The notes under the pieces are model-generated. The model was given only the letters and a program-made list of their open reading frames with translations. It did not search any database and was not told where the DNA came from. Of a stretch of DNA of 64,000 nt, positions 27,239-38,726 are shown one piece after another (positions within the stretch are counted from its first letter, which is position 1; each line of letters opens with the position of its first letter). The DNA is from Candidatus Hodarchaeota archaeon (GTDB lineage: Archaea; Asgardarchaeota; Heimdallarchaeia; Hodarchaeales; Hodarchaeaceae). A program made the position numbers and the translations under genes. The stretch lies in contig JAEOTC010000068.1 in assembly GCA_016840035.1 (NCBI GenBank), forward strand, positions 25,186-89,185, read 5' to 3'.

Positions 27239-28510
27239 TTATGTTGAAATCCTGTTCGTTGTTTTTGTCTTATGTTCGAAAATTAAAAATCCAAGTACTA
27301 ATCCAATCGTGTGAAATACGAGAAGAAAAATCCCCATTAAAGCATTATCTGAAGCTAAAAGTAGCAGATATGCATTTAAAAACTCAAAAACAAGAATGAG
27401 TATCGTATTCCGAATAAGGGGGTTTCTATATTCCGTGATGTTAAGGTGAATGTTTAAATTCAAATTTTTATTCCCTTTAATGATAATTCCAGCCAATCGT
27501 CCAAGAATAATTATTGATATTATTATAAGAAGGAGGAAAGCAATTATTAGTAAAATATCCAGAAATTTCATTATTTCTGGGGTAGAAATTCCCAATTGGG
27601 CTAAAAGCGAAAATATATTCCACAGAGAATGGAGAAGAAAAGAAAAGAATAATCCATATCTGTAATATATGAGTGCAAGGATAATTCCAAGGAAGAATAC
27701 CACAAAAAGATGCTCAATAGTATACCTGAGCGACCCATTCTGTAAATCTGCTGGTAAGTGATTAAGACTAAAGATAACACTACTCAGAAATACAACTGGA
27801 TATTTCGAGGGAATCCTCTCTTCTAGAAATGAAATCACATGTTGACGGAATACGATTTCTTCAAATAAGGGGCCAATAATTATCACTAGAAGAGAAAATA
27901 AGAGTTTTATAAGATTATTTGCGAAATAATCATCATATGGAGTTGAATATGCTGGTGGAACAGAGAAGAAATCAAGGAAATGTTCAAGAAGCGTGAGAAA
28001 GATCTCTAAAAGCCCTAGTGAAGTAAGAAAGATAATCCCCGTCAATAATACTATCCTTTGTTTATTTTTCACAGGCCTAATCTTCTTAACAGTAAATGGA
28101 ACTATTTTAACCAAAAGAATAACGAAGACTAAATCTGATATAATTGTAATAATGAGGGTGAGTAAATTTAATAATTCGGCATCACTAGATATCTTGAAAG
28201 GTAAGAAAAGAATAATGACAATACTCGTGATAGATTGAATAATAAAGTAAGAAGAAAAGATGAATATTATCAATAAGCTTGAATCGAATGGAAGAAGACG
28301 TGTAATAAACCAAGGTGTTGAATTATGTGGTGAAAGTTGTGCATCAAATGCATGAGGAGTGTGACAAGTTGGACATGCTAATAAATCATAATTATACCTA
28401 TTATTACAATTCTCACAGGAAATAGTCCTTTCTATCTTCCCCCCACAAAAGATACAATAATTTTTATAAGGAATTTCATTACCACAATGAGGACATAAAA
28501 CCTTAGACAT
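27239..28510 (-). CDS. CPBP (CAAX protease/Abi) intramembrane protease with N-terminal double zinc ribbon
   Basis: Four CxxC pairs; EEIVFR, FSLNH, H...N motifs; many TM helices. Confidence 0.85.
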   Translation of the reverse strand: MSKVLCPHCGNEIPYKNYCIFCGGKIERTISCENCNNRYNYDLLACPTCHTPHAFDAQLSPHNSTPWFITRLLPFDSSLLIIFIFSSYFIIQSITSIVIILFLPFKISSDAELLNLLTLIITIISDLVFVILLVKIVPFTVKKIRPVKNKQRIVLLTGIIFLTSLGLLEIFLTLLEHFLDFFSVPPAYSTPYDDYFANNLIKLLFSLLVIIIGPLFEEIVFRQHVISFLEERIPSKYPVVFLSSVIFSLNHLPADLQNGSLRYTIEHLFVVFFLGIILALIYYRYGLFFSFLLHSLWNIFSLLAQLGISTPEIMKFLDILLIIAFLLLIIISIIILGRLAGIIIKGNKNLNLNIHLNITEYRNPLIRNTILILVFEFLNAYLLLLASDNALMGIFLLVFHTIGLVLGFLIFEHKTKTTNRIST

Positions 28511-28663
28511 AGAAGGATCAACTAATGTTATATAAAGAGAGTTCCGCTATAAAGGTATTGGTTTAGGAAACGTATTAAATATAACGCTTAAAATTGAGAT
28601 CGAAAGGTTCATTCTTCTACACGTCCGAAGACTTCGTATTACTTAAACGAAGAGGGTATTTCA

Positions 28664-29671
28664 GTGCTACAACAATTTATTGACGAAGAAATAATGGAAA
28701 ATTTGTCTAATCAGCTCAATTCAGCAATTGAGGGACTTGAAAGTCCGACGAAAGATCGGATTCGAGAATTCATTCTTTCTACAAAGGGTAAACAATTGCG
28801 TCCTGCTCTTATCGCAGTTACTACAAAACTTCTATCTCAAAATACAGATTCAGAGGAATCACGATTAGCTCGGGCTTATAGATTTGCTGTTGTGATTGAA
28901 CTATTACATAACATGACTCTGATTCATGATGATTTAATCGATAATGCTCCCATACGTCGTGGAAAAGATGCTTTTCATATCCGGCATGGCGCTGATCGGG
29001 CTTTACATGATGGCGATGTACTTCATGCCTATGCCTTAACCTTAATCAAAGATGATCCTGCAGGTCTTAAGCTAGTTGTTGATTATGCATATCAGGTTGG
29101 TTTAGGTAATGCAATAGAACTTGAAGATAGGCTTGATCAGAATTTTGAATTTGATATGTCGCGTATCATAAAAATCATGGAATACAAAACTGCTGTAGTA
29201 TTCGCTGGATGCGTAAGATTGGGGTGTTTAGCTGCAAACCGGGAAGACCTTTTTACTGAAGAATTGAACAAAGCTATATGTGCAGCTGGAATTGCATTTC
29301 AGATTCAAGATGATTATTTAGATATCCTCGGCAATCCTGAGGAATTTGGGAAGATACAATTCTGGGACATTCAGGAATCAAAACGAAACCTTTTCCTATA
29401 TTTCTCGATGAAAACGCCCTCCTCCTCAAAGATCAAAGAAATTTTTAACAAAGATATCGGAAAGAAGAGCGAGGAAGATATTAAAATCGTTTTAGAAGCG
29501 TTTGGTAAAATTCAAGATAAGGTAAAGGAAGTACGCGACCAATATGCAAAAATTGCCATCGATGGTTTAAAAGCGATTCAGACCAACATCAATGAAGATG
29601 ATTATCAAGCTGAAGAATTAATAGAGTTCTTATTAATCCTAACGAAATATCTAATTGAACGCAGTAAATAA
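28664..29671 (+). CDS. trans-Polyprenyl diphosphate synthase (GGPP synthase family)
   Basis: GKQLRP, HDDLIDNAPIRRG, KT, FQIQDDYLD. Confidence 0.92.
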   Translation: MLQQFIDEEIMENLSNQLNSAIEGLESPTKDRIREFILSTKGKQLRPALIAVTTKLLSQNTDSEESRLARAYRFAVVIELLHNMTLIHDDLIDNAPIRRGKDAFHIRHGADRALHDGDVLHAYALTLIKDDPAGLKLVVDYAYQVGLGNAIELEDRLDQNFEFDMSRIIKIMEYKTAVVFAGCVRLGCLAANREDLFTEELNKAICAAGIAFQIQDDYLDILGNPEEFGKIQFWDIQESKRNLFLYFSMKTPSSSKIKEIFNKDIGKKSEEDIKIVLEAFGKIQDKVKEVRDQYAKIAIDGLKAIQTNINEDDYQAEELIEFLLILTKYLIERSK

Positions 29672-29697: not shown

Positions 29698-30555
29698 TTG
29701 GCTCAAATGAGCAAACATAAGGATATTCATAAGTATACAATAGAATTTACGGAAAATTTCTGGATAAATTTGTTAGAAGTTGCTGGACATGGAAACGTAA
29801 AACAATTTATTATCCAAGCTCTTAAAGTAGCGTTAGAAGCTAGAACAATAAAATCATTAATCCTCTGTGGAGGAAAAGGAACGGGATTTCGACCTTTATC
29901 TGTTGCAACTCCCGCTGTTATGCTTCCAATTGGATATAAACCGATTCTCGAATATTCTATTGATCTTTTAAGGAAACATGCACTAACTGAAGTATTTCTG
30001 TCCGTTGGTTACAGAAAAGACCACATACAACACCTTTTTTCGGAGAAAGAGTTCCCAGGTGTTAATATTGGGTTCATTTCGGAGGAAGATCCATTAGATA
30101 CTGCAGGTGCAGTACTAAATGCAAAAAAACAATTCAAATCTACATTTTTAGTTATGAATGGAGATCTAATTACAAATATTGATTTGAACAAACTACTCGA
30201 ATTTCACCGTAGTGTGGTAAAAAAGGGGGGGATAGCTACTATGTTCGTGTTAGAACAGGAAAACAGTCAAGTGGAAATTGATTCCGATAGTAATCAGATA
30301 ACAACATTTGTTAATAGTAGGAAGAAGGGTTTTAATTTTGTGAATGCAGGTGTATATATATTTGAGCCTGAACTTTTTCCTTATATCGATAAAGAAGTCT
30401 CCTCACTAGAGAAAGACATTTTTCCAGTATTAAGTAATGAAGGATTGATATATGGTTATCTTCCTGAAACGCAAGTTTATTGGAAACATATCAATTCACC
30501 AGAAAAATACCAAGAGGGATGGGCTGATTTTCTTTCTGGAAAACTAGATTTTTAA
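29698..30555 (+). CDS. Degenerate NDP-sugar nucleotidyltransferase-like protein with N-terminal RHH-like extension
   Basis: LCGGKGTGFRP, LDTAGA, MNGD, VNAGVYIF, SLEKDIFP; key catalytic residues substituted. Confidence 0.75.
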   Translation: MAQMSKHKDIHKYTIEFTENFWINLLEVAGHGNVKQFIIQALKVALEARTIKSLILCGGKGTGFRPLSVATPAVMLPIGYKPILEYSIDLLRKHALTEVFLSVGYRKDHIQHLFSEKEFPGVNIGFISEEDPLDTAGAVLNAKKQFKSTFLVMNGDLITNIDLNKLLEFHRSVVKKGGIATMFVLEQENSQVEIDSDSNQITTFVNSRKKGFNFVNAGVYIFEPELFPYIDKEVSSLEKDIFPVLSNEGLIYGYLPETQVYWKHINSPEKYQEGWADFLSGKLDF

Positions 30556-30606: not shown

Positions 30607-32133
30607 ATGCTAATATTAAGAAGGGTTACTTTTGTTTTAGACTTTCTAGCATATACTGTACTTGTTTTTATACCCTTTTATGTGATGATATGCGTTATCG
30701 AAATTTTTAATACATCAAACATCTCTATAATTCTCTTTAATATGTTATTACTAATTATAGAAGTAATAGGATTAACATTTTCATATTATCTTATTAGTAT
30801 GATTTCAGGATCGATTTTCTTTAGAACCTCAGGACGAACGTTTGAGAAGAACGCGAAAGAGGAGCCTTTTTTCAGTGTTATTGTGCCTTCACACGGAACT
30901 CCTTATTCAATCCTAGAACAGACTCTCATTGGGGTTCTTAACTTTGATTATGGAAATTATGAGTTGATAGTTAGCGATAATGGAAAGCTCCCAGATGTGA
31001 CAAAAAAACTCAGAAAGTTCTGCGTCCAAAATAATATTGACTATTATCACAAAAAAGATGAGAGGGGATTTAAAGCTGGGAATATTAATGCAGTATTCAC
31101 CTATACGAAGGGAGATTATATTGTTATTCTTGATTCAGATCATATCCCAGTTTCGAACCTGCTCCGAAAATTTGTATCAGTAATAAAAGATCCTAATATT
31201 GGTTTCGTCCAAGCAAAGGTTTCTTATCGAAATGTAAATCGAATGTATCAAAAAGCAAACTCATTTTTATATTCTCAATTCTATGAAGTTATCGAAGCAG
31301 CGAAAGATAGACACGGTATGGTACTATTCAACGGTACAACAGGATGTTTTCGAAGATCGGTATTAGAAGAGATAGGAGGATTTGCTGAAGATACTCTGAT
31401 TGAAGATATCGATACTTCAATGCAAATAATTGCGCGTGGGTATGAAGGCCGATTCATTAATTTTATTGGATCTTATGGACTCGTTCCAGCATCAGCTAAA
31501 GCTCAAATCTCCCAACTATGGAGATGGACTCATGGAGCATGTAACATCCTTCGGATCAGATTAAATCTAATACTCTCGACTCCACACATTGGATTTTTGA
31601 AGAAATTTGAATTGATATTGAATGCTATGGCTTTTTTTTCGGGAATAAGTATAGTGTTCTTCTTTAGCTTACTGGCTCTCATGATTTATCTTGATGTCCC
31701 AATTCTCCGACCCTCTTTCTTTTTGATGAACGCTTTGTATTTGATGCCACTTCTTGTTAGCACTTCTTTTTCAATAATTACAATACTTACTATTATATGG
31801 GAAGACAAAAAAGACCATTTTGTAATTAGAATGCTCCATCTAATTCCTTATTACCTATTTTCTTTGGGTTCATTTCTTTTTCTTATATCTGGAGTAATTG
31901 AGGGATTATTACTTTATAATACTCCCAAGAGCGAATCTAGTGTCTGGGATAGGCAGTTTAATATCCTGAGAAATTCACTTCTGGCTATATTGTATACAGG
32001 ACTGATAGTGTTGCTTACACTATACTCCCTACCCAATGAATTCTCATTCTTCATTCTTGGAGGAACTATTTCCTGGGTGTTTGCACCTATAATGTTAATT
32101 TGGGAGGAATTTTTTCCCCCAGATAAGGAATAA
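30607..32133 (+). CDS. Processive GT2 glycosyltransferase (cellulose-synthase-like)
   Basis: KAGNIN, DSDH, EDID, QLWRW; TM helices at both ends. Confidence 0.9.
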   Translation: MLILRRVTFVLDFLAYTVLVFIPFYVMICVIEIFNTSNISIILFNMLLLIIEVIGLTFSYYLISMISGSIFFRTSGRTFEKNAKEEPFFSVIVPSHGTPYSILEQTLIGVLNFDYGNYELIVSDNGKLPDVTKKLRKFCVQNNIDYYHKKDERGFKAGNINAVFTYTKGDYIVILDSDHIPVSNLLRKFVSVIKDPNIGFVQAKVSYRNVNRMYQKANSFLYSQFYEVIEAAKDRHGMVLFNGTTGCFRRSVLEEIGGFAEDTLIEDIDTSMQIIARGYEGRFINFIGSYGLVPASAKAQISQLWRWTHGACNILRIRLNLILSTPHIGFLKKFELILNAMAFFSGISIVFFFSLLALMIYLDVPILRPSFFLMNALYLMPLLVSTSFSIITILTIIWEDKKDHFVIRMLHLIPYYLFSLGSFLFLISGVIEGLLLYNTPKSESSVWDRQFNILRNSLLAILYTGLIVLLTLYSLPNEFSFFILGGTISWVFAPIMLIWEEFFPPDKE

Positions 32134-32777: not shown

Positions 32778-32963
32778 TCAATATGAATCTCGAGATTGGG
32801 CAATAAATGCGTTTCCACGAAGACTCCAAAGCTCATCTTTCAGCATGTCACGGATAGCAAATCTTATGGCTTCACTTCGATTTGGATATCTACCCGTCCT
32901 TACTAGCTCATCAAGGCCACTAACCTGATCGTTTGGTAGATGCACTGTGATTAATTTCATCAT
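32778..32963 (-). CDS. Small ribbon-helix-helix regulator (CopG/CdrS-like)
   Basis: ITVHLP...LDELV..GRYPNRSEAIR.AIR; GAGG SD. Confidence 0.88.
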   Translation of the reverse strand: MMKLITVHLPNDQVSGLDELVRTGRYPNRSEAIRFAIRDMLKDELWSLRGNAFIAQSRDSY

Positions 32964-33563: not shown

Positions 33564-36500
33564 ATGACTCTAGTTTCTAACGTCCAAAAAGATGAAATAG
33601 ATAGAAAAGCACCGTTCCTAACCCCTAACGCCATGACTGTCTTAGAAAAACGATATTTGCTTCAAAATGATAGAGGGGAAATCATAGAAACTCCCATACA
33701 GCTATTTTCACGTGTAGCAAAATCAATTGCCGCTAATGAGTCACGATATGGGCTTGATTCCTCTGAAATAGAGAAAAAGTTCTATGATATGATGGTTAAC
33801 TTTGAATTTTTACCTAATAGTCCTACACTAATGAATGCAGGGACAAAAATTAATCAATTATCTGCATGTTTTGTATTGCCTGTAGAAGATGATATGACAT
33901 CTATTTTTCAAGCAATAAAAAATGCTGCAGTAATTCATAAGTCAGGCGGAGGTTGTGTTGCAAAGGGAACACGAGTTTTCACTTCATTTTGTGGTGTCGA
34001 AAAAATCGATACAATTTACAATCATTTTTCAAAAAAAATTGACCCAATTTTTGAGGAGAATGCTGAGATAATTGATATATCAAATAAACAAGTGACAACT
34101 TTATCATTTGATCCACAAAGCGGTGAGATCATTTCAAAACCCATTTCAAAACTATGGAAATATAGAATCGATGCTAAATCAACTGTTAAGATAACTACAG
34201 AAGGGAAAAATTACATTTCAACTAGCAATTGGCATCCCTTTTTTGTCTGGAATGGAAGAGAGATTAGTGAAAAAAGAGCTGATGAGTTAAAAATAGGAGA
34301 ATATTTGATAACCCCTAATAAAAGTGGGATCAAGAATTGGCCCTATAAAGCTTATCAAGTAATAAATGGGATCAAGTTAGATGAGAAATTTGCTTATCTA
34401 ATCGGATTGTTTCAGACAGATGGATCGTTAAATCGTTTTAAGAATACCGTGACAGGGTGGGAGGGGCTTCGTCTTCGTTTTTTCTCTACTGATAATAAAC
34501 TGCTTGAAGAATATAATACAATTCTAGAACAGATTACTGGTAATAAATACTCTATTCAGACTGATAAGAGAACTCTGCAGGGAAGTCGTATCCCTTTAAA
34601 ATCTATAACTTGTTATGATTCAAAATTAAATGGAGCGATTGAAATAGCTAATAGAGGATTGGTTGGGAGTAAATCAAAGAGAGTACGCATACCAGAGCAA
34701 ATTTTTAAATCACCCATTACCGTAATTTATGCATATATTGCAGCTGTTTTAGATGGGGATGGTCATGTCACCAAAAAAGAGAAAAAGATCCAATTTTCAA
34801 CTGGTAGTAAAGAATTTAGTGAAGATCTAAGATCATTACTATCAGCGTTGGGAATTAAATCAAGATTTCGTGAGAGATTGGAGACAAGAATTAAACGACA
34901 GAGCCTTACTTATGAAATAACTATTAGCGGGATAGGGAATTTTCATTCGATATCTGAGAAAATACTCAAATATCTTATTGTAGATGAAAAAAGAGAACGG
35001 ATTGAATCGTATCTGAAGAGACAGCATTCTTCCGAATCATGCCCGATCTCTTTTGTGATAATTGAACCATTTCTTAATAAAGCGGGGATTGAAACAGTTA
35101 ATACAGAAATTTGGAGAAAATCTATTCAAATAGGGAAGAATAAATTCTTTTTAGGACGATGGAAAGAAAAGAATAGGATTAATGTAGTGAAAGTTGTAGA
35201 GTTAATAAAGGAACTTCTCATCGGATATAAAGATTCATTCAATGAAACGGAAATTAAATTTTTATACAAATTAACCAGAATACTTCCCTCACTTACCTCT
35301 ATTATTGATATTTCTTCTGGAGAGGAGGTAGAATTCTACGATTTTACAGTTAAAGATACAAATAATTACCTCGCAGGAAATGGATTATTCTACATTGTTC
35401 ATAATACAGGATTCGCTTTTTCTCGACTCAGACCTACTAATGACAAAGTTCAAACAACTGGAGGAGTGGCATCTGGGCCAATTTCTTTTATGACCGTTTT
35501 TAACTCTGCAACTGAAATAATTAAGCAAGGAGGAAGAAGGCGTGGAGCAAACATGGGTGTATTGCGAGTCGATCATCCTGATATACTTGAGTTCATTGAA
35601 TGTAAACAGGATCTAGAGACTTTAAATAATTTTAATATTTCAGTAGGATTAACGGAAGACTTTATGCAAGCTGTTTTATCAAATTCCGATTACCCTCTCA
35701 TAAATCCTAGAAATAACGAGACTACTGGTAAATTAAATGCCCGAACTGTCTTTGACAGAATCGTCCAAATGGCACATAATTCTGGTGAACCAGGAATATT
35801 ATTTTTAGATCGAATCAATGCCGCAAATCCTACTCCTAAAATCAGTAAAATCGAAGCAACCAATCCTTGCCTTACTGGCAACACGTTAATAGCTACAGCC
35901 GATGGAAGGACTTCAGTTCCCATAAAAATTCTTGCTGAAGAATCAAAAGACGTTCCTGTATTTACTGAAGATAATCAGGGGAAAATTGCCATTAGATATA
36001 TGAGAAGACCGAGATTAACAAGAAAAAATGTACCTGTGTACAAAATAACACTAGATTCAGGAGAGAATATTAAAACCACTGCTAACCATCGGTTTTATTT
36101 GAGAGATGGCACTCAGAAGAGAACGGATGAATTAAATCCCGGAGATAGTTTGCATGTTTTGACTAAAGTGTATCAGTACCAAAGAGGTAAATATTCTGTT
36201 AATCCTCATAAGAAATATGTACGAATGTACAACCGAGGGCATTCAGATAAATCAGAACATACAGTTCTAGCCAAATTTTTCCATAATAATGATATAGAAA
36301 TACCTGAAGGTTATGTTGTTCATCATATTGATTTTAATTCTGAAAATAATCATCCTTCAAATCTAGAAATCATGACTTCAGAGGAACATAATTCATTACA
36401 CAACTTATCTAAAAAAGGAAATAGAAATCCAATTTTTAAAATAAAATCAGATCCAGATAAATGGGAAGAATACAAGGCAAAAAATCCGTTTTATCACCCT

Positions 36501-38726
36501 ACTGGAGAGAACAATCCAAGATACGGTGTGAAAGTAACAGAAGAAACAAAGAAGAGAATCGGAAAATCACGGAAGAAGTCATACGAAGATAATCCAGTAC
36601 AAATCCAAGTTCTTTCCGAAATCGCACGAAAGAATTGGAATGATCCTGATTATGTTGATAAAACGCAAAAAGGTTTTCTACGAAAAGCACAAGTAAAATT
36701 GAAAGAATGTCAGCAACAAACAGATCTGAAATGCTCTTTAAATGGAAACAGCGTTATGGTTGAGAAGACCTGTGAGTATTGTGGGAAAAACTTTCATATT
36801 AGCTTCAGTAAGAGAGAGATTAGTTCGTGTAGAAAAGAGTGTTTTATGGATTTCTTCAATGAGAATGAGGAAATGATTCAGAAACGGACACGAGGAGTAA
36901 GACGTACCTACCAGATACAATCTAAGGAAAAACGTGAAAACCAGCTACAGTGTTTTATTGATTTAAAGAGAAAATTAAACCGTGATCCCTTGAAAAAGGA
37001 ATGGGAGAACCAATGCAAAAAATCTTCAATACCCTATAGATTAGGAACAGAATTCGGCTTTAAAACTTATACTGAACTCAAAAATTCAGCCCTCATGTAC
37101 AATCATACAGTTCTCGCTGTAGAATTATGTGGGGATGAGGATGTATACAATGGGACAGTTGATGATTTTCATAATTTTTTCATAGGTGGGTTTAAAGAAG
37201 AAAAAACAGGAAAAGAAAGAATAAAATTCGTCAAAACTCAGAACTGCGGTGAGCAACCCTTATTACCATATGAATCGTGCAATTTGGGCTCAATAAACCT
37301 TGGAAAGATGGTTAAAACTGATTCCACTCAGACTTATGGATATAGCATAGATTTTGAGAGGTTAGAACAGATTACTCGACTTTCAGTGAAATTTTTAGAC
37401 AATGTGATTGATCTTTCCACTTTTCCACTACCAGAAATAGAAGAAATGACAAAATCTAACCGTAAAATTGGACTTGGAGTGATGGGTTTCGCAGATCTAC
37501 TAATCAAATTAGGAATCTCCTATGATTCACTGGAGGGTCTCGGAATCGCGAAAAAAGTGATGAAATTTATTCATCAAACTGCACTTCAAGCATCACAAGA
37601 TTTGGCAAAAGAAAGAGGTTCATTTCCAAATTTTCCAGAAAGTACGTTGGCCGATCACTACACGATGATGAGGAATGCAACATTAACTACTTTAGCGCCT
37701 ACAGGGACTATTTCAATTATTGCGGGATGTTCCAGTGGAATAGAACCTTTATTCATGTTAACCTATGAAAGACGAGTTCTTGATGATGATATTCTGGTTG
37801 AAGGATATCCATTTTTTGTGGAGAAAGCAAAACGATTGGGCTTTTACTCACAGGACCTGATGAAACAGGTGGCATTGACTGGTTCAATCTCAGAAATTGA
37901 AGAAATACCCGAGGATATCAAAAAAGTCTTCGTCACGGCACATGATATAACGCCCGAGGCCCATGTGAGAATGCAGGCTGTTTTTCAAGGATCTGGTGTA
38001 GATAATGCTGTCTCGAAGACAATTAATTTTCCTCACGAGGCCTCTTTAGAAGATATACAACAAGCCTACCTCCTTGCATATGAATTGGGGTGTAAGGGCA
38101 TAACCGTTTATCGTTCAGGTTCCCGCGCTTATGATGTACTGTCAAAGAAAGGAACGAATGAAGAATCCAGTGTTGTTGCTGAACCAATTAAAATTAAAAA
38201 ACCGCGACAAAGACCCAATGTCACTCAAGGAATTACTGAACGAATAAGAGTTGGTTGTGGGACAAATTTATTTATTACAATCAACGAAGATGAAGAAGGT
38301 CTAACAGAACTGTTTTTATCCTTGGGTAAATCAGGAGGATGTGTAGCTTCTCATATTGAGGCGATGGGAAGGCTCATTTCATTGACACTACGTAGTAGAA
38401 TTGATCCTGAAGAAATTATTTTACAATTAAAAGCGATCAGATGTCCTTCACCGACTTTCGGACCAGAAGGACCAGTCCTTTCATGTGCTGATGCAGTTGC
38501 TAAATCCGTCGAAAGGTTTATCGAACAATATAGTCAAAATGGGAACGAAAAAAATTCTGTCAATGAGGGACAAAAAGATGTTAAAGAGTATGGTGACCCA
38601 GAAACGCTTTATTTAACTCATACAACATCAGGATTACGACCAGAATGTCCAGAGTGTGGTAATATTGTGGAACATAGTGAAGGGTGCATTCTTTGTCGGG
38701 TTTGTGGATATTCCAAGTGTGGATAA
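33564..38726 (+). CDS. nrdJ: Adenosylcobalamin-dependent (class II) ribonucleotide reductase, about 777 aa after removal of two inteins; C-terminal TSCPD and Zn-ribbon domains
   Basis: PNSPTLMN, QLSACF, GG|TG, RRGANM, NP|CGEQPL, APTGTIS, KGITVYR. Confidence 0.95.
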   Translation: MTLVSNVQKDEIDRKAPFLTPNAMTVLEKRYLLQNDRGEIIETPIQLFSRVAKSIAANESRYGLDSSEIEKKFYDMMVNFEFLPNSPTLMNAGTKINQLSACFVLPVEDDMTSIFQAIKNAAVIHKSGGGCVAKGTRVFTSFCGVEKIDTIYNHFSKKIDPIFEENAEIIDISNKQVTTLSFDPQSGEIISKPISKLWKYRIDAKSTVKITTEGKNYISTSNWHPFFVWNGREISEKRADELKIGEYLITPNKSGIKNWPYKAYQVINGIKLDEKFAYLIGLFQTDGSLNRFKNTVTGWEGLRLRFFSTDNKLLEEYNTILEQITGNKYSIQTDKRTLQGSRIPLKSITCYDSKLNGAIEIANRGLVGSKSKRVRIPEQIFKSPITVIYAYIAAVLDGDGHVTKKEKKIQFSTGSKEFSEDLRSLLSALGIKSRFRERLETRIKRQSLTYEITISGIGNFHSISEKILKYLIVDEKRERIESYLKRQHSSESCPISFVIIEPFLNKAGIETVNTEIWRKSIQIGKNKFFLGRWKEKNRINVVKVVELIKELLIGYKDSFNETEIKFLYKLTRILPSLTSIIDISSGEEVEFYDFTVKDTNNYLAGNGLFYIVHNTGFAFSRLRPTNDKVQTTGGVASGPISFMTVFNSATEIIKQGGRRRGANMGVLRVDHPDILEFIECKQDLETLNNFNISVGLTEDFMQAVLSNSDYPLINPRNNETTGKLNARTVFDRIVQMAHNSGEPGILFLDRINAANPTPKISKIEATNPCLTGNTLIATADGRTSVPIKILAEESKDVPVFTEDNQGKIAIRYMRRPRLTRKNVPVYKITLDSGENIKTTANHRFYLRDGTQKRTDELNPGDSLHVLTKVYQYQRGKYSVNPHKKYVRMYNRGHSDKSEHTVLAKFFHNNDIEIPEGYVVHHIDFNSENNHPSNLEIMTSEEHNSLHNLSKKGNRNPIFKIKSDPDKWEEYKAKNPFYHPTGENNPRYGVKVTEETKKRIGKSRKKSYEDNPVQIQVLSEIARKNWNDPDYVDKTQKGFLRKAQVKLKECQQQTDLKCSLNGNSVMVEKTCEYCGKNFHISFSKREISSCRKECFMDFFNENEEMIQKRTRGVRRTYQIQSKEKRENQLQCFIDLKRKLNRDPLKKEWENQCKKSSIPYRLGTEFGFKTYTELKNSALMYNHTVLAVELCGDEDVYNGTVDDFHNFFIGGFKEEKTGKERIKFVKTQNCGEQPLLPYESCNLGSINLGKMVKTDSTQTYGYSIDFERLEQITRLSVKFLDNVIDLSTFPLPEIEEMTKSNRKIGLGVMGFADLLIKLGISYDSLEGLGIAKKVMKFIHQTALQASQDLAKERGSFPNFPESTLADHYTMMRNATLTTLAPTGTISIIAGCSSGIEPLFMLTYERRVLDDDILVEGYPFFVEKAKRLGFYSQDLMKQVALTGSISEIEEIPEDIKKVFVTAHDITPEAHVRMQAVFQGSGVDNAVSKTINFPHEASLEDIQQAYLLAYELGCKGITVYRSGSRAYDVLSKKGTNEESSVVAEPIKIKKPRQRPNVTQGITERIRVGCGTNLFITINEDEEGLTELFLSLGKSGGCVASHIEAMGRLISLTLRSRIDPEEIILQLKAIRCPSPTFGPEGPVLSCADAVAKSVERFIEQYSQNGNEKNSVNEGQKDVKEYGDPETLYLTHTTSGLRPECPECGNIVEHSEGCILCRVCGYSKCG
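33954..35405 (+). mobile_element. Intein 1 (484 aa) with LAGLIDADG homing endonuclease
   Basis: GGG|CVAKGT...IVHN|TGF; block B TSNWHPF; LIGLFQTDG and YIAAVLDGDG. Confidence 0.93.
35868..37244 (+). mobile_element. Intein 2 (459 aa) with HNH endonuclease, NUMOD3-like and Cys-rich modules
   Basis: NP|CLTGNT...KTQN|CGE; TANHRF; VVHHIDFNSENNHPSNL. Confidence 0.92.

Follow-up and report, generated by a model that had tools for sequence, protein, structure and literature searches.

What is the function of a protein that combines the fold of a sugar-1-phosphate nucleotidylyltransferase with degenerate catalytic positions and an additional N-terminal region of 48 residues? This question is raised by a gene located at positions 29707..30555 (+) of a 64,000-nucleotide stretch of DNA from Candidatus Hodarchaeota archaeon (assembly GCA_016840035.1, contig JAEOTC010000068.1, positions 25,186 to 89,185; this whole stretch is hereafter the window). 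The source names of the closest homologues point to Hodarchaeales, an Asgard order of the class Heimdallarchaeia and, among known archaea, the closest relatives of eukaryotes; the orthologues are named 'nucleotidyltransferase family protein' or 'NDP-sugar synthase' (NDP, nucleoside diphosphate) in public databases. The reading that we favour, and to which we give an even chance, is that the gene encodes a ligand-responsive ribbon-helix-helix (RHH) transcription regulator in which a catalytically dead nucleotidyltransferase (NT) domain serves as the sensor. No description of a fusion between an RHH domain and a sugar nucleotidyltransferase was found in the literature searched, in which 'ribbon-helix-helix' and 'sugar nucleotidyltransferase' did not occur together in any paper.

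The original prediction, which was made from the sequence of the window, placed the reading frame at 29698-30555 of the forward strand. This frame is present and would yield 285 aa from the TTG at 29698, but its start was misplaced: homologues begin at the ATG at 29707, three codons further in, which gives a product of 282 aa plus stop, and cluster representative P0001 is a 282-aa protein identical (100%) to that of the window. Across 19 genomes, the RHH-NT protein is 62-91% identical, compared with 50-72% for the neighbouring family 2 glycosyltransferase (GT2). Within the clade, nonsynonymous divergence (dN) is 0.06-0.27 for the NT domain and lower, 0.01-0.23, for the N-terminus. Because synonymous divergence (dS) is saturated even against the nearest genomes, the dN/dS of the gene, about 0.05 or less, is an upper bound. 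The whole clade is under strong purifying selection, and a decaying pseudogene is ruled out by this ratio together with the intact frame in 19 of 19 genome loci.

Apart from the N-terminus, the protein belongs to the NT fold (PF00483), as judged from family profiles and structure comparison of a predicted model. The only Pfam domain, NTP_transferase, extends over 29851..30516 (+), or residues 52-273 of the 285-aa reading (E 3.7e-26), and covers profile positions 1-237 of 245. Among the NCBIfam models, mannose-1-phosphate guanylyltransferase, archaeal GlmU, HddC, and RmlA were matched, with scores at a third or less of the equivalog cut-offs. Among solved structures, the nearest are those of eukaryotic GDP-mannose pyrophosphorylases, including 7whr (9.5e-32) and GMPPB (7d72, 4e-31). 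The full-length AlphaFold2 model (mean predicted local distance difference test [pLDDT] score of 88.7) superposes on GDP-mannose pyrophosphorylases with a template modelling (TM) score of 0.73, and in Foldseek searches, GMPPB (2.4e-20), VTC1, and RmlA were retrieved within the 1e-15 to 1e-20 range. The protein ends 9 residues past the NT domain, and the hexapeptide-repeat tail, already reported missing in the original prediction, is absent both from the Pfam matches and, as a beta-helix, from the model. Given that many active short-form relatives also lack this tail, its absence is uninformative with regard to activity.

The catalytic positions were mapped by aligning the protein with HMMER to chain 7whr, the GDP-mannose pyrophosphorylase of Leishmania (LdGDP-MP), and are given here in the 282-aa numbering. 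In the latter enzyme, an 'absolutely conserved' residue of the signature motif, R21, anchors the phosphates; K170, carried on the F(V)EKP loop, reaches into the catalytic centre; and the Mg-coordinating Asp pair consists of D118 and D226 (PMC9424295). In the Hodarchaeales protein, the signature loop reads GGKGTGFRP (29869..29895, +), with Gly60 (29884-29886) in place of the Arg corresponding to R21; Ala70 (29914..29916, +), within TPAVML, occupies the position of the conserved Lys of the PKP(M/L) motif (K31 of LdGDP-MP); and WKHIN (30481..30495, +), within YWKHIN, replaces WxDxG, with His261 (30487-30489) at the position of D226. These three substitutions read exactly as originally claimed, and a fourth had been overlooked: F(V)EKP is replaced by FVNSRKK (30307..30327, +), with Ser204 at the position of K170 and a Lys-Lys pair 2-3 residues downstream. 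The first Mg-binding residue, Asp153 (30163..30165, +; D118 of LdGDP-MP) of the NGD motif, is retained and invariant.

The alignment of homologues bears out that the three originally claimed changes characterize the whole clade. The P-loop, PK, and WxD substitutions are carried by 53 of the 53 clusters (90% identity; P0001-P0053) in which the motifs could be read, so that neither chance nor sequencing error explains them; the loss of the EKP Lys was checked in the 9 clade members present in one alignment. In the readable clusters, the Arg position is occupied by Gly or Ser and the Lys position by Ala, Ser, or Pro, whereas WNHIN invariantly takes the place of WxDxG, the corresponding sequence in the window's own protein being WKHIN. 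By contrast, the non-fused relatives with readable motifs in the same match list nearly all keep GTRL and PK, and most of them keep WxDxG (the motifs of ~20 non-fused clusters were unreadable). The NT domain has thus lost four residues that are described in the literature on the closest solved enzyme as absolutely conserved or directly catalytic. The motifs framing the base and the ribose, namely, the GG loop, the E-x-x-P-L-x-T-A-G block, NGD, and NAG, are invariant in active and inactive clades alike, as are L53, G55, G56, E126, T132, G134, and D153. From the lost catalytic residues, the kept pocket, and the purifying selection, it follows that the domain is likely maintained for a function that requires the pocket but not the chemistry.

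Could the protein nevertheless still be an enzyme? Under this alternative, which we consider improbable, an RHH-fused NT with a remodelled active site, in which His261 is a metal ligand and the downstream Lys-Lys pair serves in the catalytic loop, would supply the activated sugar for the neighbouring GT2, possibly regulating itself in the manner of PutA. A location between a polyprenyl synthase and a GT2 is classic for an NDP-sugar-forming enzyme; D153 is still present, as are the GGxG loop and the base-binding motif; a His residue is capable of binding a metal; nearly all clade members have the Lys-Lys pair; and sister clades with the same fusion keep the canonical catalytic residues. However, four separate residues (P-loop Arg, PK Lys, EKP Lys, and second Mg-binding Asp) have been replaced together, P-loop and PK are preserved in nearly all readable non-fused relatives, and the NCBIfam scores fall 3-4 fold below every equivalog cut-off. 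Moreover, the genome encodes six other PF00483 paralogues, in three of which canonical P-loop and PK motifs were read, so that NDP-sugar synthesis can proceed independently of this gene.

The second unusual feature of the protein is its N-terminus (residues 1-48; 29707..29850, +), which consists of a basic arm, the strand HKYTIEF (residues 8-14), a helix (16-26), the turn GHGN, and a second helix (31-47). In AlphaFold2 models of both the full-length protein and this segment alone, residues 7-14 are extended and residues 16-26 and 31-47 are helical (pLDDT 84-92), in line with the strand-helix-helix pattern of RHH type that had been proposed. The segment is 67-100% identical across the clade, which, together with its low dN and saturated dS, indicates that it is indeed translated and under constraint. 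When the 48-residue model was compared with 48,161 Protein Data Bank (PDB) chains using VIA-align, the top ~50 matches were almost exclusively RHH domains (Z 5.7 to 3.6, 40-48 residues aligned). The best match was the RHH domain of PutA bound to operator DNA (2rbf; Z 5.7, root-mean-square deviation 1.8 A over 42 residues), and the others included TacA, AmrZ, HP0222, CopA, NikR, ORF56, Arc, VapB, omega, and ParG. The coverage of 41-48 of the 48 residues includes the extended N-terminal strand. Foldseek also retrieved Arc, NikR, and ParD with the same model, all at non-significant E-values above 1, and a feature search of the ESM Atlas with residues 1-50 yielded no usable match.

Profile searches extended this comparison to sequences. 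A search of 1.84 billion representatives with a profile of the N-terminus retrieved the fused proteins as well as stand-alone proteins of 45-70 aa that have in common with the fused N-termini the pattern x-H-x-x-x-I-x-F-P-x-x-L-W ... G-N-x-x-x-F-I-x-x-A-I-x-E-K-L-E; two of these stand-alone homologues have marginal Pfam matches to RHH_1 or RHH_5 (E 0.005-0.02). In hhalign comparisons, a narrow N-terminal profile matched five Bathyarchaeia N-termini with a probability of only 0.2%, whereas a profile of 25 N-terminal sequences could be aligned, in the RHH register and across 38 columns, with a profile of N-termini from related fusions (P 2.9e-4, probability 40%); two members of the latter set are positive for Pfam RHH_1, P0072 (E 4e-6) and P0089 (E 1.4e-3). 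From these comparisons of models and profiles, we conclude that the N-terminus is most likely a divergent RHH domain, with a predicted beta-alpha-alpha topology superposable on solved RHH domains; dimerization and DNA binding would be expected from this fold. The extension might instead be a lineage-specific helical appendage with no role in DNA binding, its matches reflecting a common two-helix arrangement. The lack of a significant sequence match to RHH families, the Foldseek E-values, and VIA-align Z-scores of ~5, within the range that the tool itself warns can be non-specific, would all fit this possibility. Nevertheless, we regard it as quite improbable, given the almost pure list of RHH matches that includes the N-terminal strand, the in-register alignment with Pfam-validated RHH N-termini, and the stand-alone homologues of RHH size. 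The NT tree speaks against it as well, because it groups the protein with the N-extended fusions of Bathyarchaeia (SH-aLRT 95), with the RHH_1-positive group D just outside.

Taken together, an architecture in which an RHH domain precedes a pseudo-nucleotidyltransferase is well supported by the models and alignments, and the following regulatory mechanism is plausible. The RHH domain would form dimers, with the invariant strand HKYTIEF of each chain contributing to a two-stranded DNA-binding ribbon. The NT fold, no longer catalytic, would still bind a nucleotide or an NDP-sugar, the probable candidates being of the GDP-hexose or GTP type. DNA binding would then change with the occupancy of this site, which would tune transcription of the local module consisting of the polyprenyl synthase, the regulator itself, and the BcsA-like GT2. 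The retained E-E-D-P-L-D-T-A-G block and the GDP-mannose pyrophosphorylases among the nearest neighbours hint at a guanine nucleotide or GDP-hexose as the ligand; we infer both the identity of the ligand and that of the regulated genes. Hence, both structural proposals of the original prediction, the dead NT domain and the RHH-like N-terminus, held up, whereas a regulator through which the GT2 and prenyl synthase genes respond to NDP-sugar status stays where it stood, as a conjecture.

How could such a protein have evolved? N-terminally extended NT proteins were found in several archaeal lineages that differ in the state of the catalytic motifs. In the Hodarchaeales clade that includes the window's gene (group A), the motifs are dead; the metagenomic sisters P0055 and P0057 (group Ai) have lost only the PK Lys; a second Heimdallarchaeia family (f3) keeps Arg, Lys, and Asp (GGEGARLKP, IPKAMIP, WIDVA); in Aenigmatarchaeota (group B), the motifs are mostly intact; Bathyarchaeia (group C) keep PK and WxD, with Val-Lys or Val-Asn in place of the P-loop Thr-Arg in most members; and in the Pfam RHH_1-positive set (group D), most members are intact, P0072 lacking both Arg and Lys. 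In a maximum-likelihood tree restricted to the NT domain, groups A, Ai, B, and C are united with an SH-aLRT support of 95 and group D branches just outside, with a stem of 0.5 substitutions per site leading to group A. This topology fits a single ancient fusion followed by a probable loss of catalysis on the Hodarchaeales stem, and because most of the N-extended lineages keep the catalytic residues, the Hodarchaeales form appears to be a derived pseudoenzyme that would descend from the RHH-fused nucleotidyltransferases of several archaeal phyla. For the same reason, the catalytically intact fused lineages are candidates for moonlighting enzymes acting in the manner of PutA.

The P-loop was also eroded independently in the RHH-fused proteins P0058, P0129, P0122, P0072, and P0059-P0064, with sequences such as GGQEREVAG, GGEASDLYP, GGPGVGMGP, GGKGIGNRP, and GGLGVKLRP. 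Such eroded P-loops, which include the GV(K/N)L forms of Bathyarchaeia, are almost completely missing among the non-fused relatives with a readable motif, suggesting that catalysis may have come under relaxed constraint once the RHH domain was attached. Among 301 sampled Asgard genomes, the N-terminal domain was detected in 18 of the 20 genomes of the window's family and in 26 of the 29 genomes of f3. It was not found in other searched Asgard families, two of which comprise 76 and 68 genomes, except for four weak matches (E 6e-5 to 8e-4) in open reading frames (ORFs) of ~175 aa from families f18 and f23. The two Heimdallarchaeia families have the same strand, HK[YF]T[IV]EF, even though their NT domains are only ~33% identical, the kind of constraint that would be expected of a recognition surface.

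We next consider the genes that surround the fusion. Immediately upstream, 35 nt before the RHH-NT gene, lies a gene for a short-chain, geranylgeranyl diphosphate (GGPP)-type polyprenyl diphosphate synthase (28664..29671, +; PF00348, 5.8e-52; best NCBIfam model GGPP_syn, below cut-off), which is syntenic in the 19 loci. A BcsA-like processive GT2 synthase of 508 aa (30607..32133, +) starts 51 nt downstream; it matches the Pfam GT2 families, BcsA in the PDB (1.8e-27), and the TIGR03030 CelA domain, and contains the D, D, D, and QxxRW (QLWRW) motifs, but lacks the PilZ domain that serves as the cyclic di-GMP gate of bacterial cellulose synthases. The same gene order was found in 19 of 19 Hodarchaeales-type loci: lipoyl synthase, transcription factor B (TFB), Rce1-like protease (-), polyprenyl synthase, RHH-NT gene, GT2, endonuclease dU (-), and a stand-alone RHH gene (-). 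The GT2 always adjoins the fusion gene, at a distance of 30-260 nt. The spacer between the synthase and the fusion gene is 36-50 nt in most loci and 149-264 nt in five, so that the RHH-NT gene can have its own promoter.

Three other genes in this part of the window are of note in their own right. The stand-alone CopG-type RHH gene (32778-32963, -; Pfam RHH_1, 2e-8) lies 32 nt upstream of the same-strand endonuclease dU gene (PF01949; 32143-32745, -), and its product is 78-98% identical across the order, far above the neighbouring endonuclease. The Rce1/CPBP-type polytopic intramembrane protease (27239-28510, -), which carries a double zinc ribbon at its N-terminus and is encoded divergently from the polyprenyl synthase, occurs in synteny throughout the order but is only 31-63% identical. 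Further downstream, a 1720-aa ribonucleotide reductase ORF (33564-38726, +) seems to contain large insertions, one LAGLIDADG-like and one HNH-like, which look like inteins.

In the related clades, the fusion gene has different neighbours. The Ai sister is located behind a polyprenyl synthase and a UbiA prenyltransferase, which provides some extra support for the link to the prenyl synthase. In clade B, all three loci with sufficient flanking sequence (L023, L024, and L025) have the fusion gene divergent to the genes for phosphoglycerate kinase (PGK) and glyceraldehyde-3-phosphate dehydrogenase (GAPDH). In one Bathyarchaeia locus, GAPDH, PGK, and the fusion form an overlapping operon (L020:3589-6708), and the P0058-type fusion is encoded downstream of a GAPDH-like gene (L090:1-1843). 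The fusions of Aenigmatarchaeota, of Bathyarchaeia locus L020, and of the P0058 type may be moonlighting regulators of central carbon (gluconeogenic) genes. In f3, a class I/II aminotransferase gene adjoins the fusion in 4 of 4 loci (L093-L096; genomes G026, G086, G157, and G003), in tandem in two and divergent in two, so that the adjacency has survived rearrangement. These neighbours outside the order are more informative than the synteny within it: such clade-specific, often divergent partners are typical of local transcription factors and less so of a housekeeping NDP-sugar enzyme.

In an alignment of 17 orthologous promoter regions, the only conserved block was a BRE/TATA-like element (transcription factor B recognition element followed by a TATA box), AAAC-TATTAAATA, ~100 nt before the synthase start (window 28511-28663). 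This distance to the GTG start of the synthase implies a 5' leader of unusual length for an archaeal gene; a Shine-Dalgarno-like GAGG follows. A repeat search returned one weak inverted repeat and one direct repeat inside a gene, and visual inspection of the long spacers in L015/L017 and L018 revealed palindromes that these loci do not have in common.

Several observations weigh against a DNA-binding regulator of this module. A Pfam scan of 18 N-termini identified no family even at an E-value of 10, and PDB profile searches with the N-terminus gave nothing significant, the best sensible match being the RHH domain of MazE/EndoAI (E 0.2). The structural Z-scores are modest, as expected for 48 residues. 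At the third DNA-facing position of the strand, a Glu is invariant, an uncommon residue for a ribbon in contact with DNA. His261, as a potential metal ligand, and the Lys-Lys pair could leave the NT domain with residual or altered catalysis. Among 10 diverged loci, k-mer sharing did not exceed that in shuffled controls except for TATTAAA, and the upstream and intergenic regions yielded no conserved repeat resembling an operator. Finally, the whole 9-kb neighbourhood is syntenic within the order, so that adjacency is weak evidence of a functional link, and the connection to the GT2 in particular rests on synteny within one order.

Some of these observations would be better accommodated if the protein were a regulatory or scaffold subunit that does not bind DNA, an alternative that we deem unlikely, albeit one to be taken seriously. 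In this case, the dead NT domain would sense a nucleotide-sugar and act, protein to protein, on the PilZ-less GT2 or, in the way that GMPPA acts on GMPPB, on one of the catalytic NT paralogues, with the RHH-like part serving for dimerization only. The invariable adjacency to the GT2 in the 19 loci, the lack of the PilZ gate of bacterial BcsA, the missing operator, and the ribbon Glu atypical of DNA contact are all in keeping with such a role, for which GMPPA and KONJAC, both among the PDB matches (7d72 and 8yre), provide precedents as allosteric dead NT paralogues. However, assembly of the GMPPA type uses the C-terminal beta-helix that the RHH-NT protein lacks; the same N-terminal domain occurs as stand-alone proteins of 45-50 aa, which is typical of RHH DNA binders; and the unrelated, often divergent neighbours in the related clades (PGK/GAPDH, aminotransferase) are more easily reconciled with a transcription factor than with a dedicated subunit of the GT2.

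Comparison with characterized systems places the putative ligand-responsive regulator next to two groups of proteins, and it is a member of neither. With regard to the combination of an RHH domain with an enzyme or sensor, the closest are PutA and NikR. In PutA of Escherichia coli, an N-terminal RHH domain of ~45 aa, the best structural match (2rbf), is likewise fused to an enzyme fold in one polypeptide, and the catalytically intact archaeal relatives could similarly work as both enzyme and autoregulator. However, the enzyme domains of PutA (proline dehydrogenase and pyrroline-5-carboxylate dehydrogenase; PRODH/P5CDH) are active and unrelated, whereas the Hodarchaeales protein contains a Rossmann-like GT-A NT domain devoid of the catalytic residues, and the identity is 14%. 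NikR also combines, in one chain, an RHH head with a non-catalytic domain that binds a small molecule (structural matches 1q5v [Z 5.0], 2bj1, and 2ca9), but its sensor is an ACT-like nickel-binding tetramerization domain rather than an NT fold, and outside the RHH fold, the two are unrelated in sequence.

With regard to the dead NT sensor, the closest analogues would be human GMPPA and Arabidopsis KONJAC, non-catalytic paralogues with the same NT fold that keep the nucleotide-sugar pocket as a sensor; the closest solved relatives of the protein are GMPPB-type enzymes (7d72 and 7whr, 1e-31; Foldseek, 2.4e-20). In GMPPA, the Arg of the P-loop and the Lys of the PK motif are still present; it binds GMPPB via a C-terminal left-handed beta-helix and has no DNA-binding domain, whereas the Hodarchaeales protein has an RHH domain and no beta-helix. 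Membership in the GMPPA or eIF2B-gamma/epsilon families was rejected because of the absent C-terminal beta-helix, and the comparison with these proteins is, for the same reason, by analogy only. The short-form archaeal sugar-1-phosphate nucleotidylyltransferases (PF00483), which are annotated as NDP-sugar synthase or mannose-1-phosphate guanylyltransferase, resemble the protein in fold, length of the NT domain, and sequence (33-40% identity), but have intact GxGTRLRP, PKP, EKP, and WxDxG motifs and no N-terminal extension.

A broader, more tentative scenario, which we hold to be rather less than likely, casts these proteins as stages of a transition from an enzyme to a transcription factor. 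A single fusion of an RHH domain to an active NT would have given rise to PutA-like moonlighting enzymes, which persist in Aenigmatarchaeota, Bathyarchaeia, and one Heimdallarchaeia family; in Hodarchaeales, the enzyme would have died and become a dedicated nucleotide-sugar sensor controlling a module for an isoprenoid carrier and a cellulose synthase-like glycan. The result would be a new class of one-component regulators and an independent parallel to GMPPA. The relatives would then form a natural series from enzyme to sensor, from fully catalytic proteins via those with a loss of the Lys only or an eroded P-loop to the fully dead form. If the favoured reading is correct, a conserved Hodarchaeales gene annotated in public databases as 'NDP-sugar synthase' would in reality encode a regulator, and a dead sugar nucleotidyltransferase would be a new type of sensor domain for RHH transcription factors. 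In metabolic reconstructions of Hodarchaeales, the gene should then not be counted as a source of activated sugar; instead, it would offer a tractable handle on how Asgard archaea control the synthesis of lipid carriers and cell-surface glycans.

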